Both the position numbers and the translations under genes were made by a program. From a virus, in UHGV virus genome UHGV-0212970: a stretch of DNA of 53,962 nucleotides. One strand, written 5' to 3'. Shown piece by piece: positions 1-53,962 of this stretch (position 1 is the first letter of the stretch; every line of letters starts with the position of its first letter). Below the pieces are notes generated by a model. The model was given only the letters and a program-made list of their open reading frames with translations. It was not told the origin of the DNA and did no database searches.

Positions 1-645
1 ATCATTCCAGCGATAAACAATATCAGGGTTATTGACGTTGGCGAAAATTATGCGGTTGGCGAGCGTTATTTATCATGCGATGAAATAGGCCATTTCTGGC
101 GAACGGTGGATGATTCGCAGATCTACCGTCAGAACAAGATAGCATTAAAGCTATTATTGCTCACCGGGTGCAGGGTGGGGGAGTTGCAGAAAATGAGAAG
201 GGAGCACCTCGACCTGGATAACGGGGTGTGGACCGTCCCGGCAGCGGTGGCGAAGACAAGAAGTGAAATCAGGCGGGGATTATCAGATTTGTCGATAAAA
301 ATGCTCAGGGAGGTGTTATCCTCCCATGAGTATGATTACGTGTTCCCGCCAGTGATTAACGGCGGTAACAGGCCAGTAAACGCATCGGTGATAAAAGTAG
401 CCGCAATCTTCGTGCGTAAAAGGATGGGCGGTAAATCATGGTCCTGTCACGACCTCCGCAGGACGTGCCGGACACACCTTTCAGCTATAGGTGTTCCGGT
501 ACATATTGCGGAAAAGATCTTAGGCCATTCATTAAGGGGAATACTGGCGGTGTACGATAAATACGATTATCTTGACGAACAAAAGGAGGCGCTAAATAAG
601 TTTGCTGATTATGTATTATCTTTGGCTGACGTTAAACCAATCTGA
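1..645 (+). CDS. int: Tyrosine integrase, C-terminal catalytic part (5' end lies outside the window)
   Basis: Frame of ORF 106..645 is open back to nt 1; HDLRRT box and C-terminal Tyr region (AVYDKYDY) typical of phage integrases. Confidence 0.85.
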   Translation: MIPAINNIRVIDVGENYAVGERYLSCDEIGHFWRTVDDSQIYRQNKIALKLLLLTGCRVGELQKMRREHLDLDNGVWTVPAAVAKTRSEIRRGLSDLSIKMLREVLSSHEYDYVFPPVINGGNRPVNASVIKVAAIFVRKRMGGKSWSCHDLRRTCRTHLSAIGVPVHIAEKILGHSLRGILAVYDKYDYLDEQKEALNKFADYVLSLADVKPI

Positions 646-2344: not shown

Positions 2345-2530
2345 TCACAATTCCCCACGCAGCGCCCGCAATGCATCGTGCATTGGCACAAAAACCCGGT
2401 TAAATTTTACGTGTTTATATTTCCGCATCAGTGGCGGTGTATACACCTTTGCGTCGTATACTTCCCACGGATAATAAACGCGCGTATCGTCGACAAACGT
2501 TTCAACTGAATAAAAGATTACCCGTCTCAT
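2345..2530 (-). CDS. Hypothetical protein
   Basis: 61-aa ORF in leftward operon, tightly packed with neighbours. Confidence 0.4.
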   Translation of the reverse strand: MRRVIFYSVETFVDDTRVYYPWEVYDAKVYTPPLMRKYKHVKFNRVFVPMHDALRALRGEL

Positions 2531-3163: not shown

Positions 3164-4585
3164 TTAAAAGGATGCGTTATTCTGGTTATTTCGTGGGGAG
3201 AATCGGCTTGCTGCCGGACGTTGTTGCATTGACTGGATGCAGGCGGACGCCGCGCGAGCCTGGTCGCATGGAATGATGTTGCCGTTATCGTCAAACCGCT
3301 GGTAAACAGTCCCCGTTTTCCCGTGACGGTTTTTTGAAACAATGATCTCCATGTATTCGCGGGCAACTGATTGTTCGTTGTAGTAGCCGTCGCGGTAGAC
3401 CATGATGATCCGGTCTGCGTCTTGTTCAAGATTACCGGAATCACGCAGATCGGAATTGTTCGGGCGCTTGTTCGGTCGTTCTTCAACGCGGCGGGATAAT
3501 TGCGCCAGCGCCGCCACTGGCACGCGCAACTCTTTCGCCATCATTTTCAATGACCACGACAATTGCCCTACGGCGAGATCATGACGTTCGGCCTTAGCCA
3601 GCTTCATTAACCCGATGTAGTCAATCATTACCATCCCCAGGTTAGGATGGTCCTGTTTCATCCGTTCGACGGTGGCGCGTATTTCCTCGACCGTTAACTG
3701 TGATGCGTCAACAATCCACACATCGAGATCGGCAAGGGCGCTCATTCCCTGGGCGACGTGCGCCCATCCTTCATCATCAAGTTTTACCGGATTACGTAGG
3801 CAATCCGTTGATAAGTTCCCAGCGCCAGCGATCGCGCGTTCAGTCATCTGATCGAGTGACATTTCAAGCGTGAACAGTAAAACGCCTACCCGCTGACCTT
3901 CTCCGCCAGGGTATGGACGTTCAGCCGCCGCGCGGGCAATTGCCAGCGCCAATGCCGATTTACCAGACCCAGGGCGTCCGGCGATAAGTACCAGATCAGT
4001 AGCGTTAATGCCGCCTAACATTTCGTCGAGTGGGTCAATCCCTGTTTTGATGTTGTCAGAGTTCACGCCACACTCCATGCGTTTACTTAGCACTTCCGTG
4101 TATTCCTGGACCGCATCGCGCAACAGCACCGGGATAATCTTGTCTTTCGTTACTTTTAATTTTGAATACCGGGAATCAAAATATTTCATCGTCTCCCTGA
4201 CAGCTTCAAGTGTCCCGGTTTCCAGGTTGTAGCGTATATCGTCCATCAGTTCCAACATTTGCCGCCGCTGATATTCCTCCTGTAATAGAGCGGCGTACCC
4301 CTTAAGGTTGGCAGCAGATGGACACGATCGCGCCGTTTGCATTAGCGGGACAAAATTTTCGTTACCGATTTCATCACCGACCATCAGAGCGTCAATAAGG
4401 TTTCTGTTTCTTGCTTGCGCCCGGATGATCTCAAACGCTCGTTTATATAGTGGAATGGTGAAGACTTCAGGATCGAGCGTAGCAAGAACATCTTGCGCGT
4501 TAGGAGTAAGCCCGCCCAACAGGAGGCCACCTATCACAGCCGCTTCCCGTTCCTGGCGTAATGAGTTTATTTGCTCGGTCACCAT
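3164..4585 (-). CDS. DnaB-family replicative DNA helicase
   Basis: 473 aa; Walker A GRPGSGKSALALAIA, DnaB-like N-terminal domain and RecA-like core; SD GGAGG upstream. Confidence 0.85.
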   Translation of the reverse strand: MVTEQINSLRQEREAAVIGGLLLGGLTPNAQDVLATLDPEVFTIPLYKRAFEIIRAQARNRNLIDALMVGDEIGNENFVPLMQTARSCPSAANLKGYAALLQEEYQRRQMLELMDDIRYNLETGTLEAVRETMKYFDSRYSKLKVTKDKIIPVLLRDAVQEYTEVLSKRMECGVNSDNIKTGIDPLDEMLGGINATDLVLIAGRPGSGKSALALAIARAAAERPYPGGEGQRVGVLLFTLEMSLDQMTERAIAGAGNLSTDCLRNPVKLDDEGWAHVAQGMSALADLDVWIVDASQLTVEEIRATVERMKQDHPNLGMVMIDYIGLMKLAKAERHDLAVGQLSWSLKMMAKELRVPVAALAQLSRRVEERPNKRPNNSDLRDSGNLEQDADRIIMVYRDGYYNEQSVAREYMEIIVSKNRHGKTGTVYQRFDDNGNIIPCDQARAASACIQSMQQRPAASRFSPRNNQNNASF

Positions 4586-4622
4586 TATGGTATTGCCTCC
4601 GGTTTACAAAATGGAATATTCA

Positions 4623-5126
4623 GGGTAAAGAAATACCGTGATTGCTATGAAAGTTATACATTCTTTCAGCTTCTTTTCTTGCTTTTACGGCATCATCAAA
4701 TGAGTCACCGTAATAAACGTATATTGTTTTCTTTTTCCCATCAGATCACCTTATACCTATTTGCGCACGCCATTTATTGGTTTTCTTGTTCCACGTAACG
4801 CCAACGCATCCGCTAGTATTACTTGATGGCATTGTTTTGTTTCTGTTATTCTCCTTCCTTGTCACCATCCTTAAGTTTTCGATTCTATCGTCACCAGGTA
4901 CATGATTTATGTGATCTATTTCCATTCCATCAGGAATAGGGCCGTTAAACATTTCCCAGATAATGCGGTGACGCCATGTGCAACAAATACCATTAACGCG
5001 TACAGTCCAATATCCGCGATAATGTTTACATCCAGCCACGCTACCTGCTTTTATTTTGTTATTTGCACGGTTACAAGACCAATATAGAACGCCGTCGCTA
5101 TATGTAAATAAATCATCCCACATCAT
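4623..5126 (-). CDS. HNH endonuclease with AP2-like C-terminal domain, reading frame interrupted by a stop codon near 4746-4748
   Basis: ORF track 4746..5228 (likely start at MMWDD, 5126) has HNH motif EIDHINH...NLRMVTRKEN; 41 further codons after the TGA encode the rest of an AP2-like domain (KKKTIYVYYGDSFDDAVKARKEAERMYNFHSNHG) matching the intact paralog at 32592..33083. Confidence 0.6.
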
Positions 5127-6243
5127 GACACCCCACCATTTCAGGCCTATATACAAAGCGACCAATTTCGCCATAATCAGGACTGTAAATGATAACCGCA
5201 GCGCAACGTTGCGATCTCCATCCTCCATTAGTTGAATAAGCGTCTTTGCCCGCTAACGTGCCGTGGTGTTCAACTATGCCTATAGATGATTCTGTTACTG
5301 ATTTATGGTGCAAATGTCCGACATGGACGTAAACATATTTCGACTTTCCGAAATCCTCCCGCCAGTCAGCTACGCAAGCAGCCAACAAATTTTCCGGCTT
5401 TTTGATAGTGTGCCCGTGGTGGTAAGCAAGGAATGTTTTGCCGTACTGTGTGTGGTGGACGATAGCAGGGGACACATCAACCGTCACGCGCGGTTCATCT
5501 TCGTAAAAAGCCGCCAGCGCCGCGCGTAGCCAAATCATGCCTGACTGATCGTGATTGCCTGATAACACCTGGATTTCAACATCCTTATGATTTAGTAACA
5601 TCTTCCCGACCGCACGCCGGACCGACCGGATCGCCACGTAAACCAGTTTTGCGTAGCGTGAATCGCAATCCAGGACGTGATTGCTTGATGGCGTCACTGG
5701 TAACAGGCCGTCAGTATGAAGCACATCACCGCCGAGAAGTAAAACAGCCTTTTCAGACATTGGCGCAGCGCCTACCGAGTAGTCGAAGAAATCATTTAGC
5801 ACACGTTCAGCGATCCCGGTGTCGTAGCTTTCGCCGCATTCAGCTTTATGAGCAAGCGCCCCGATATGTAGATCGAATACCGGATAAAGGGCCAGGCTTT
5901 TTTGGAAATCAATTTCCGGCACTGGCACGGCCTCCGCGCGTGGCATATCTTCCGTGAAAGCATCGCAAGCCGCTTGCATTAGCCTTTCCATTTCATCGCG
6001 ATCACGGGCTGTTTTAATCCAGCGCATAATCACATTGCCATCCTTATCGACGAGCAAAGACTCACCATTGACGCCAAAACCCGGTGCGCGGCGCGTGGAT
6101 ATTAAACCGCGTTTCGCCAACCGTGCGCCCAGGCGTTCGACGTTGCGTTTTGCCATGCCATATTTTTCTGCGATCTGTTTATACGTCAGACCGTTATTAT
6201 GTTCAGCGATTAACTGTTCATCGCTGATCTTTCTTTGTGACAT
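5113..6243 (-). CDS. Calcineurin-like metallophosphoesterase with N-terminal HTH
   Basis: 376 aa; motifs DLHIG, GGDVLH, GNHD, HHGH, GHLH; N-terminal HTH-like segment (GLTYKQIAEKYGMAKRNVERL). Confidence 0.65.
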   Translation of the reverse strand: MSQRKISDEQLIAEHNNGLTYKQIAEKYGMAKRNVERLGARLAKRGLISTRRAPGFGVNGESLLVDKDGNVIMRWIKTARDRDEMERLMQAACDAFTEDMPRAEAVPVPEIDFQKSLALYPVFDLHIGALAHKAECGESYDTGIAERVLNDFFDYSVGAAPMSEKAVLLLGGDVLHTDGLLPVTPSSNHVLDCDSRYAKLVYVAIRSVRRAVGKMLLNHKDVEIQVLSGNHDQSGMIWLRAALAAFYEDEPRVTVDVSPAIVHHTQYGKTFLAYHHGHTIKKPENLLAACVADWREDFGKSKYVYVHVGHLHHKSVTESSIGIVEHHGTLAGKDAYSTNGGWRSQRCAAVIIYSPDYGEIGRFVYRPEMVGCHDVG

Positions 6244-15825: not shown

Positions 15826-16309
15826 CAGGTTATTAGCCTGCGTTTATGTCGCCGTTTTCGTGATTATCAATCTTATTGTTAACCATTGCGGCCCGTGGGT
15901 GATTCCGATCACCACGGTAGCCGCAGTGTGTGTCAATATGATGATCCGTGACCTTCTGTTATATGACGGCGGCCTGAAATGGTCGGCTACAACATGCGCC
16001 GCCGCTGGCGCAATCACGGTGCTGATAAATTACGACGCCGGAATGGTGGCGATCGCGTCATTCGTCGCGGTTGTTTCCGGTGCGCTTATTTCTGGCGGCG
16101 TTTACCGGGTTCTACCTGGTGATTTCGATTCCAAACGCTGGCCTGCAAATATAGCGTCCGCCATTGGCGATGCGTTAATTTTTCCCACGCTATCGTTTAT
16201 GGCATTTATGCCGGAAATATCAGCTATTCAATTCATCTCAAAAATGGCAGCGGTAACGGTGATTACTATCATCATGCGCCGCTATTTCACGTTTGAGGGT
16301 AGAAAATGA
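15806..16309 (+). CDS. Multi-pass inner-membrane protein (possible YhhQ/VUT-like precursor transporter)
   Basis: ORF track 15764..16309; 4-5 hydrophobic helices; family assignment tentative. Confidence 0.4.
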   Translation: MERVTIDRLLACVYVAVFVIINLIVNHCGPWVIPITTVAAVCVNMMIRDLLLYDGGLKWSATTCAAAGAITVLINYDAGMVAIASFVAVVSGALISGGVYRVLPGDFDSKRWPANIASAIGDALIFPTLSFMAFMPEISAIQFISKMAAVTVITIIMRRYFTFEGRK

Positions 16310-17069
16310 GCGGGCTTAGAAATTGGGTTATCTGGTCGCTGTACGACGGAAGCGGGTACGCCGTTAAAGATTGGGCGGAAGCTGGTATAAATGCTATTGC
16401 TTCAACTATGACGGCGCTAATCACGGGGATTATGACGGGGTAAAAATAATTCATCCAAATATTGAATATGTTAACGTATGGATTGACAGCCATTTCCTGG
16501 TAATGTTCTCCCCTGAATTGTCTGTTTATCCAGATCCTGACATTATCTTGGGCTTTCCTCCGTGTGATGATCTTGCCGTATCAGGCGCTCGTTGGTTCGC
16601 TGATAAACGGAAAAAAGATCCTGGCTTCCAGGTAAAGGCGGCGTATAACGCAAAAATTGTAGAAAAACTGGCGAATATGTATAACGTGCCGTGGATGGTG
16701 GAAAATCCAGTTGGCGCACTGTCAACGTTATGGCGTAAACCGGATTTTATCTTCAATCCTTGCGTTTACGGTGGCTACCTGCCTGAAGATGACAAACATC
16801 CTGCTTTCCCGGAATACATTGCCGACCGCGATGCCTACACGAAGAAAACTTGTATTTGGTGCGGGAATGGATTTAAGCAGCCGCTATTCCGTCCTGTGCC
16901 GATGCCAGATGAATGGGAAGACAGTAAGCAGCACGCGAAGTTAGGCGGAAAATCAAAGCGAACAAAGATGATCCGCTCACTAACGCCGCGTGGCTTCGCC
17001 CGTGCTGTATTCCTAGCTAACGACCGGGCCATCAATCGTACTACGCTCAACCGCGTTTTGCCGGACTGA
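16306..17069 (+). pseudogene. DNA (cytosine-5)-methyltransferase split between two reading frames (16306..16443 and 16371..17069)
   Basis: Upstream short frame encodes motif-I-like WVIWSLYDGSGYAVKDWAEAG then stops; ORF-track frame 16371..17069 carries motif IV GFPPC and motif VI ENPVG; junction within 16371..16443. Confidence 0.5.
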
Positions 17070-24291: not shown

Positions 24292-24615
24292 ATGACTAAA
24301 TTTATCAGCGTTAAAGTTTTCCGTGGCACTTTTCCAGAAGATAAAGAAATTGGACAATTCGCAGGTGAACGTTGAGTATGTTTCCGTGTAGCTACTGAAG
24401 ACGATGCGCACGTTAAATGCTTTCACGTATCTGAACCGCCTTTTAATGCAGAACATCTTGAAGACCTGAATAGAATTAAAAGCCTTATTTTTGCCTATCT
24501 GGCGTTCCCTGGCATAGCTAATGCTGATGTGGGATTGGTTGGCGCTGAACTGGTTGCGGAATACAAAATGACTGAAGGTGTAACAGGGGGAACTGACATT
24601 GAGCGCATCAAGTAA
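24292..24615 (+). CDS. Hypothetical ORF interrupted by an in-frame TGA near 24373-24375
   Basis: ATG at 24292, 27 codons, TGA, then 80 open codons with no internal start, ending at TAA 24613-24615. Confidence 0.35.
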
Positions 24616-31701: not shown

Positions 31702-32587
31702 CACCGAAGACCCGACCATGACAGGTAAGTTGCGGTCGGGCGCTATTAAGCGTTTTAAATCCTGCCTGAAGAAAATAGCCGATCCATATATCGCCATACT
31801 GGACAGAATACAATATAGCCTGGCTGTTAATAAGAAATACACCTTCCAGATTTACATGGATGAATTGCACGACATGCTGGAGGACGCCAGCAACATGATT
31901 GATGAGATATTCGAACTAACCGACCCGGAAAGTTTTTGGTTCTGGCAGGAATACGTGAAGGTGGCCTATCAGCGCGGCACGGCACAGGAATACGCCAACA
32001 TCGCTAACCAGTCTGTCACGTACTCAAGCGCATACCCTGATGTATCTGCCGTGTTATCAAGCACAACTTACCGCACCCGCCTTGCCCTGGTGCGTACCCG
32101 TGTATTTGAGGAAATGCGCGGGCTGACCGCACAGATCAAAAAGGATATGGCCCGGCGATTAACTGAAGGCATGGCCCGTGGTTTAAATCCACTGGAAATA
32201 GCGCGCACATTGAATCAGGAAACGCAATTGCCACTGTACAGGTGCAAACGTATTGCCCGAACTGAAATATGCACAGCGTTACGCACAGCACGTATGGATG
32301 AGGCCGAAGCGGCGACAGAAGAATTTAATCTGCGCACTATGCAAATGCACATTTCGGCATTATCACCGACTACCAGGCTATCGCACGCGCAGCGGCACGG
32401 GAAAACATACACCATAGATGAGCAGCGCGAATGGTGGAGCAGATCCCCAAATTCTATTAACTGCAAATGTAGCACGATTACCGTATTAGTTGACGAAGAC
32501 GGTAACATATTAAACGAAAGAATATTAGATCGGGCGCAAGAAAACTATAAGGTTGCGCACGCTAAATATGGCGAAGATTGGGAGTAA
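31691..32587 (+). CDS. Head morphogenesis protein (Mu F / SPP1 gp7 family)
   Basis: ORF track 31643..32587; C-terminal region RIARTEICTALRTARMDEAEA ... HAQRHGKTY resembles the MuF-like domain. Confidence 0.7.
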   Translation: MPSNTEDPTMTGKLRSGAIKRFKSCLKKIADPYIAILDRIQYSLAVNKKYTFQIYMDELHDMLEDASNMIDEIFELTDPESFWFWQEYVKVAYQRGTAQEYANIANQSVTYSSAYPDVSAVLSSTTYRTRLALVRTRVFEEMRGLTAQIKKDMARRLTEGMARGLNPLEIARTLNQETQLPLYRCKRIARTEICTALRTARMDEAEAATEEFNLRTMQMHISALSPTTRLSHAQRHGKTYTIDEQREWWSRSPNSINCKCSTITVLVDEDGNILNERILDRAQENYKVAHAKYGEDWE

Positions 32588-32591
32588 AACC

Positions 32592-33083
32592 GTGAGTAAA
32601 ATGATTAACTGGCATGATTATTTCACGTATGAATCAGGTCATATTTATTGGAAAATATCACCAACTAACGGCGTACATATTGGCGATCATGCAGGCAATG
32701 ACAGCGGGTTAGGATATTTGCGTGTCCGTGTCAACTATAGGTTATATCTTGTTAGTAGAATCATATGGGAAATGCACAACGGACCGATACCTGAAGGTTA
32801 CGAGATAGATCATATTGACCATAACACGCTAAATAACGATATAACGAATCTAAGGATGGTAAGTCATTACGAAAATACACTAAATGCGCCAATGAGAAAA
32901 GATAATAAAAGCGGTTACATCGGTGTTATTTGGCATAAGGCGTCACGTAAATGGATGGCGTATGTACAAGTGAATAAGAAGCGCAAACATTTAGGTTTAT
33001 TTGACAGCATAGATGAGGCTGTAGCCGCACGCCGACAAGCTGAAAAAGAGAACAATTATCATCCAAATCACGGGAGTGTTTAA
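32592..33083 (+). CDS. HNH endonuclease with AP2-like C-terminal domain (intact paralog)
   Basis: ORF track 32553..33083; HNH motif EIDHIDHNTLNNDITNLRMVSHYEN; AP2-like YIGVIWHKASRKWMAYVQVNKKRKHLGLFDSIDEAVAARR. Confidence 0.8.
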   Translation: MSKMINWHDYFTYESGHIYWKISPTNGVHIGDHAGNDSGLGYLRVRVNYRLYLVSRIIWEMHNGPIPEGYEIDHIDHNTLNNDITNLRMVSHYENTLNAPMRKDNKSGYIGVIWHKASRKWMAYVQVNKKRKHLGLFDSIDEAVAARRQAEKENNYHPNHGSV

Positions 33084-53878: not shown

Positions 53879-53962
53879 TGTACCAAATTGTGACCAAATA
53901 TCAAAAATCAAAAACAAAAATAATGTAATGTGCTGTTTTATAAATGATTATTCGTTGCGCTA

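Follow-up and report, generated by a model that had tools for sequence, protein, structure and literature searches.

Can an endonuclease gene whose reading frame closes in the middle of its DNA-binding domain still deliver a working enzyme, or has it been inactivated? This question is raised by a locus on the minus strand of the virus genome UHGV-0212970, a stretch of 53,962 nucleotides that we analyzed as a whole and refer to as the window. A first-pass annotation had called an HNH-AP2 endonuclease gene there disrupted, or else in need of stop-codon read-through, and had proposed low-level read-through as a way to limit a nuclease that is toxic when overexpressed. The disruption was borne out by comparison with relatives; the proposed role for read-through was not. 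We consider it highly probable that an HNH-AP2 homing endonuclease gene homed to this site recently and that a nonsense mutation has since turned it into a very young pseudogene.

The interrupted frame and its intact orthologs

To describe the break, we translated the minus strand from 5126 to 4560. A single frame yields a 126-aa product (MMWDD...AQIGIR), a stop, a further 41 aa (SDGKKKTIYVYYGDSFDDAVKARKEAERMYNFHSNHGISLP), and a second stop. The truncated ORF opens with an ATG at 5126 and runs for 126 codons (4749..5126, minus strand); the premature TGA at 4746..4748 is codon 127, is followed by a T, and replaces a glycine codon of the orthologs (GGG or GGA). Written as RNA, the surroundings of the stop are AUAAGG-UGA-UCUGAUGGG. 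Beyond it lies an orphaned in-frame segment of 41 codons (4623..4745, minus strand) that encodes the third β strand, the α-helix, and the FHxNHG tail of the AP2-like domain. It ends at a TGA (4620..4622, minus strand) that translation and the ortholog alignment identify as the ancestral stop of a full-length, 168-aa gene. The end of the ORF and the coordinates, frame, and count of the 41 codons had all been annotated correctly. Forty-one open codons in a row would arise by chance with a probability of ~0.14 and are not rare in themselves; it is homology, not open length, that decides.

That homology is seen in domain matches, in ortholog alignments, and in conservation across the family. Upstream of the stop, HNH_3 (PF13392) matches aa 51-95 (window 4842-4976) with an E value of 1.4e-21; whether the translation is truncated or read through, the match scores 76-77 bits, above the cutoff of 24.8. 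The window protein retains each of the family-invariant residues D71, H72, N84, and N96 (…EIDHINH…ENLRMVTRKENNRNK…). Pfam AP2 (PF00847; E 2.2e-5, residues 107-155, 25.1 bits against a cutoff of 33.3) is found only when the stop is read through. A profile of the family matches I-HmuI (1U3E; E 3.3e-7, residues 1-108, hmmsearch) and the AP2 domain of WRI1 (7WQ5; E 3e-4, residues 100-150). An AlphaFold2 model of the homolog P0001 (92% identical) has a pLDDT of 86.5 overall and of 91-96 in the C-terminal 41-residue region, with strands at 110-113 (β1), 118-126 (β2), and 132-140 (β3) and a helix at 143-156. A Foldseek search with this model returned I-HmuI as the top match (probability 0.99) and 1GCC (AtERF1) and 7WQ5 (WRI1) with probabilities of 0.97-1.00. 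The 308 homologs at E<=1e-5 come mostly from Escherichia, Salmonella, and Klebsiella phages or prophages. The architecture is that of an HNH-AP2 homing endonuclease with predicted nuclease activity, here encoded by a free-standing gene.

In the P0001 model, the turn between β2 and β3 begins with the residue of codon 127. The uninterrupted ORF of the window falls short of an AP2 fold, since the TGA removes β3 and the helix. The truncated product keeps the I-HmuI-like N-terminal region, HNH_3, β1, and β2, and it loses β3, the helix, and the FHxNHG tail. Because its AP2 DNA-binding domain would lack β3, the helix, and the conserved tail, the 126-aa protein has most likely lost site-specific cleavage.

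The window genome belongs to the mEp021-like (mEpimmI) group (~88% identity genome-wide), which comprises temperate, Nus-dependent E. coli phages; the terms "HNH," "homing endonuclease," and "pseudogene" are absent from the text of the group description (PMC11893012). Orthologs of the gene occupy the same site in mEp021 (AXN54129.1, "putative HNH endonuclease"), mEp515 (WWQ70398.1), and mEp010 (WWQ70174.1, "homing endonuclease"), with 90.8-97.6% DNA identity, and in two IMG/VR contigs. At codon 127, mEp021, mEp515, and the two IMG/VR contigs have GGG and mEp010 has GGA, i.e., glycine in 5/5 alleles, and the ortholog proteins align with the window at 92-99% identity straight through the stop position. 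When the six alleles are aligned, a single base of the gene proves private to the window, the T at 4748, and no such change lies downstream of the stop. The nearest allele, on IMG/VR contig L006, differs from the window at 3 positions in 507 nt (4901, 4748, and 4746). A scan of IMG/VR with a 26-mer pattern that allowed any base at the two variable positions gave 2 matches, both GGG; the same pattern had 0 matches in GTDB genomes and JGI metagenomes, which is uninformative. The full-length protein with G127 restored occurs, as an exact sequence, in E. coli genomes, and in the 90% protein cluster (90 members) the 14 other members among those listed are 167-182 aa long. Hence, the premature stop is private to the window genome and reflects a mutation there.

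The codons beyond the stop are conserved in homologs. A family alignment of 61 sequences shows A146, R150, H160, N162, H163, and G164 to be conserved at >=90%, and codons 128-168 have a pN/pS of 0.03-0.07 between intact alleles, a value that indicates strong purifying selection. Column 127 is less constrained in kind: it holds glycine in 39/61 sequences, and homologs also have K, D, S, or N. Given the conserved residues and the low pN/pS among intact alleles, relatives, as judged from these comparisons, use the downstream segment as functional coding sequence, and in the window a nonsense substitution of its own has struck a gene whose intact orthologs are under purifying selection. The first-pass reading of the 41 codons as the rest of the AP2-like domain is thus upheld by the Pfam match and by orthologs that align across the break. 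Its comparison with a paralog elsewhere in the window stood in part: the two segments are homologous, sharing 14/27 residues, but the two peptides had been quoted in swapped order (the broken gene encodes YYGDSFDD..., the intact paralog GLFDSIDE...).

The 3′ end of the gene varies among relatives. mEp010 (L003 1608-2147) and the proteins P0001, P0005, and P0012 are without the equivalent of the TGA at 4620-4622 and continue for ~14 extra codons (…GISLPIENTFCKPE…) that overlap the start of dnaB. In P0012, the N-terminal and HNH part is only 55% identical, yet the last ~45 residues are nearly identical, a pattern that suggests recombination between different endonuclease genes occupying the same site.

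Might the 126-aa protein have acquired a function of its own, with the AP2 tail dispensable, for example as a non-specific nickase or as a packaging or replication helper? The intact HNH_3 domain with all four invariant residues would agree with such an HNH-only protein, as would the existence of shorter homologs (P0018, 121 aa; P0087, 112 aa; P0106, 116 aa). However, P0018 was broken at a different point, has a frameshifted tail, and looks like a case of independent decay, whereas P0087 and P0106 keep the C-terminal domain in the alignment and are short at the N terminus instead. In addition, the tail is strongly selected in every intact allele, and the truncation splits a β-sheet of the P0001 model and does not fall at a domain boundary. 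We regard a functional short form as scarcely credible.

The stop allele and other lesions in the genome

A sequencing or assembly error is a second way to account for the stop; the true codon would then be glycine and the gene intact. The genome is a metagenome-assembled contig ("MAG TPA"; a MEGAHIT k119 contig), the T that creates the stop is the lone private base in the gene, and several other small lesions in the same genome could mean a noisy consensus. Against this, the exact 126-aa product is present on three ~54-kb contigs from three sources: NCBI TPA (DAH35050.1, "MAG TPA: homing endonuclease"), an ENA assembly, and Logan. It is unlikely that chance misassembly would yield the same truncated protein on all three. 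The ENA contig (ERZ27289114:k119_115368; 54,081 nt = 53,962 + 119-nt k-mer overlap) is the window in circularly permuted form and carries the identical TGA. Over the ~11 kb compared, the two differ by one SNP at position 5778 (A versus C), and the ENA contig is therefore a separate consensus. The SNP suggests either a within-sample polymorphism or two closely related samples; the three contigs may share one biological sample, so that independent recurrence of the TGA allele is not implied. Furthermore, a single-base miscall would not be expected to change two positions of the codon, as is the case here relative to the nearest alleles. The distribution of the other lesions, described below, likewise argues for real mutations. 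Taken together, we consider an artefact unlikely.

To place the stop among these lesions, we screened the window for broken genes against the annotated CDSs of phage MagusPhagus and also against mEp010. The large structural and replication genes, which take up most of the genome, are all intact, and private lesions occur only in small accessory genes. First, a private TGA at 2345-2347 (minus strand; gene 2327-2530) costs a widespread hypothetical protein of 68 aa its last 7 residues and leaves 61 aa (DAH35133.1); four relatives have arginine there (AGA or CGA), and TTA AGA became TTG TGA. Second, a private TGA at 24373-24375 (plus strand; gene 24292-24612) falls at codon 27 of a 107-aa hypothetical protein, where MagusPhagus and mEp010 have glycine (GGC), in a short patch that differs from relatives at 8/15 nt. 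Third, a 1-bp deletion at ~16386 (gene 16306-17066, plus strand), seen against GCTGGTTATAAA in MagusPhagus and GCTGGATATAAG in mEp010, throws a DNA methyltransferase gene (254 aa) out of frame beyond codon 27. Fourth, an indel at ~2208 (minus strand; region 2151-2314) splits a hypothetical gene of 65-75 aa, for which the ENA gene call is 39 aa. We set aside what looked like stops in codon 3 of the Rz-like spanin and at the N terminus of NinG/Rap as differences of start site or annotation.

The integrase gene is 5′-truncated, with ~210 C-terminal codons left (53948..53962 + 1..645, across the circular junction). Compared with the related Logan contig L019, ~743 nt are missing, comprising the integrase N terminus and the attP region; in the ENA contig, the circular junction is contiguous. 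From its sequence, the genome is probably unable to integrate. Lesions confined to small accessory genes are better explained by real mutations, with selection for lytic growth acting as the filter, than by random errors, and the stop in the endonuclease gene fits, as far as the comparison goes, one of several losses of dispensable functions.

Possible read-through at the UGA

Could the full-length enzyme nonetheless be made across the stop? As an attenuation device, background read-through of the UGA would give a trickle of full-length protein with tryptophan at position 127 (G127W), enough for occasional homing while avoiding toxicity. In E. coli, UGA read-through does arise where Trp-tRNA competes with RF2 (PMC10570021). 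Codon 127 lies in a variable hairpin turn, and the codons downstream of the stop have taken no secondary mutation. All three in-frame nonsense codons seen in the genome are TGA; this has a chance probability of ~0.04, but it was noticed post hoc and is not significant.

Several observations weigh against attenuation. The stop is absent from every ortholog and from the 14 other listed cluster members, and the missing downstream decay is equally expected of a very young pseudogene. The base that follows the UGA is U (AUAAGG-UGA-UCUGAU), and UGA-U is reportedly the strongest UGA termination context in E. coli, as Poole, Brown and Tate are said to have found in 1995. ARAGORN detected no tRNA, and hence no suppressor tRNA, in the window. 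No Rfam match was obtained in 4300-5500 at E<=1, and folding of the sequence 3′ of the UGA gave no convincing hairpin: the fold is only marginally above shuffles (z -1.87; 6/200 shuffles equally good). Moreover, the sequence 3′ of the stop likewise follows a sense codon in the intact alleles. The genome has, besides this stop, further private lesions in accessory genes. Thus, neither a conserved stop nor a leaky context or stimulatory RNA structure, the marks of programmed read-through, is found here, and we regard read-through as a means of restraining a toxic nuclease as quite unlikely.

Four further routes to the full-length protein were considered and rejected. A genome-wide reassignment of TGA conflicts with its use as terminator in 19/53 genes whose C termini are conserved versus MagusPhagus. 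A selenocysteine or other recoding element lacks both an Rfam match and a convincing downstream hairpin, and a suppressor tRNA is missing from the window by ARAGORN. Frameshift bypass or re-initiation does not apply: the domain continues in the zero frame, the only ATG close by (in GATGGG) sits in another frame, and no in-frame methionine comes before codon 156. The locus resembles programmed read-through (Qβ A1, MuLV gag-pol) and selenocysteine recoding in having an in-frame UGA with conserved same-frame coding sequence downstream. It differs from them in that the stop is unconserved and in a strong context, and in that neither a stimulatory RNA, nor a SECIS, nor an encoded suppressor tRNA was detected.

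A host with leaky UGA termination (a weak RF2 or a UGA suppressor) would offer another setting for low-level activity. In such a host, the three private TGAs (codon 127, 2345-2347, and 24373-24375) would have almost no effect on fitness or would serve to damp expression, and low-level work by the endonuclease would continue in its G127W form; we find this very doubtful. Some background UGA leakage that inserts tryptophan must, by the general behavior of this codon, occur at a low level, and it would not be programmed. The G127W protein could be active, the turn at 127 in the model being tolerant, and nothing indicates that selection acts on a trace of it. With downstream decay absent, the sequence alone cannot show whether the gene is dead or merely attenuated. 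On the preferred reading, a young nonsense pseudogene, termination at the UGA would yield a 126-aa protein that keeps the nuclease motif and has an incomplete DNA-binding domain, and any full-length product would come only from unselected leakage with tryptophan inserted.

Homing footprint and proposed history of the locus

How did the gene reach this site? It lies on an insertion of 521 bp (4619..5139, minus strand), which corresponds to a precise, clean gap in the prophage of E. coli strain E21845 and in phage MagusPhagus. A 6-bp CCTGAA repeat bounds it at 5140-5145 and 4619-4624, and the insertion-less junction in contig L021 and in MagusPhagus reads CCTGAA followed by TATTCCATTTTGTAAACCGGAGG (CCTGAA-TATTCC). 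The GC content is 0.385-0.415 over the gene and 0.50-0.55 in the flanks. Upstream is a metallophosphoesterase-like gene (5113..6243, minus strand; 376 aa) whose 3′ end overlaps the endonuclease start by 14 nt. The insertion replaces its last codons and so rewrites its C terminus; the protein has 372 aa in insertion-less genomes, and its relatives are annotated as "DNA repair exonuclease" or "metallophosphoesterase family protein." On the other side, the gene of the replicative DnaB-type helicase (3164..4585, minus strand; Pfam DnaB and DnaB_C) starts 35 nt past the ancestral stop.

The distribution of the insertion is patchy. We did not find the endonuclease gene in mEp013, mEp044, mEp554, or MagusPhagus, nor in any of the 5,426 complete E. 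coli genomes searched. The exact DnaB protein of the window is encoded on at least 23 contigs, and in 9/10 of the listed places the insertion is absent.

Comparison with insertion-less and insertion-carrying relatives delimits what was transferred. Over 7100-5401 and 4600-2700, the window shares 99-100% identity with three contigs that lack the insertion (L021, L027, and L030). Over ~5400-4620, its match is L006, which carries the insertion: identity there is 96-100%, and the two agree at all but 4 of ~570 informative sites. These sites place the crossovers between 5449 and 5370 and between 4629 and 4590, and they define a donor-like patch of ~800 bp (4610..5410, minus strand) made up of the insertion and a co-converted upstream flank. 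The flank amounts to ~250-320 nt upstream of the gene (46 informative sites); at the 3′ end of the gene, the sequence returns to backbone-like within 40 nt. Presence/absence polymorphism at one site is thus combined with co-conversion of donor flank, and such a footprint is expected of homing with one-sided co-conversion.

We propose the following history. The copying of the segment into an insertion-less, mEp021-like backbone is documented by the informative sites; its source was a donor like the IMG/VR contig L006, and the copy landed between the metallophosphoesterase gene and dnaB, bringing ~250-320 nt of upstream flank along. Its entry into the backbone is so recent that the flanks have not yet diverged. 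A substitution would later have turned glycine codon 127 into TGA; we place this after the transfer, since homing requires that the enzyme of the donor be active. From GGA, the codon of mEp010, a single G-to-T change would suffice. Relative to the nearest alleles, which have GGG, two positions differ, and the sequences would thus call for either a GGA intermediate or a double change. The locus would then represent the first step in the ordinary cycle of invasion, fixation, and decay of selfish homing genes.

A second endonuclease gene of this kind is intact. The paralog (32601..33083, plus strand; ATG at 32601 within an ORF of 32553..33083) shares 45% protein identity with the broken gene and sits between a head-morphogenesis gene and the next head gene. 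Among seven related phages, only mEp515 has the same gene, and the paralog is hence an independent mobile insertion. Mis-assembly by cross-talk between the two copies was rejected: the paralog is only 45% identical, and the broken gene is 99-100% identical to L006 throughout. Other nuclease genes are found in the replication module of relatives. ENA contig k141_5135 (L029 419-1330) has a 303-aa T5orf172/DUF4379-like ORF just upstream of the metallophosphoesterase gene, and IMG/VR contig L007 (9866-10321) has a further HNH paralog; both look mobile.

Among the closest known systems is I-HmuI of Bacillus phage SPO1 (1U3E). The likeness covers the N-terminal ~108 residues, with the β-sheet DNA-contact region and the HNH ββα-metal motif, and both are small, monomeric, phage-encoded mobile nucleases. 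I-HmuI is encoded by a group I intron and has a C-terminal helix-turn-helix, whereas the window gene is free-standing and has an AP2-like C terminus, here interrupted. Phage and bacterial HNH-AP2 endonucleases share the HNH_3 plus AP2 architecture and the size (157-182 aa); the window copy differs in that its AP2 is cut after β2, and even the restored protein scores 25.1 bits for Pfam AP2, under the gathering threshold of 33.3. Plant AP2/ERF domains were reportedly proposed by Magnani et al. in 2004 to derive from the HNH-AP2 endonuclease group. Also close are the orthologs of mEp021, mEp515, and mEp010, at the same site between the metallophosphoesterase gene and dnaB, but these are intact, with glycine at codon 127. 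Goddard and Burt are said to have described, in 1999, a life cycle of homing endonucleases that runs through invasion, fixation, degeneration, and loss. The locus resembles it in its patchy distribution, its co-conversion footprint, and an inactivating point mutation without further decay. The model comes from intron- and intein-borne yeast genes, and its extension to a free-standing phage gene is an inference.

The HNH-AP2 homing endonuclease family is already known and annotated; what is new is a young pseudogene allele. For annotators, the public 126-aa "homing endonuclease" entry is a truncated product. For the biology of these genes, the locus provides a clean natural snapshot, in which the backbone is available with and without the insertion, with flanks 99-100% identical. 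The co-conversion tract can be delimited to tens of bases, and the inactivating mutation is the lone private change in the gene. The mEp021-like group is thus a convenient system for the homing of free-standing HNH-AP2 genes and for questions of their target site, of the direction of co-conversion, and of the speed of decay after invasion.
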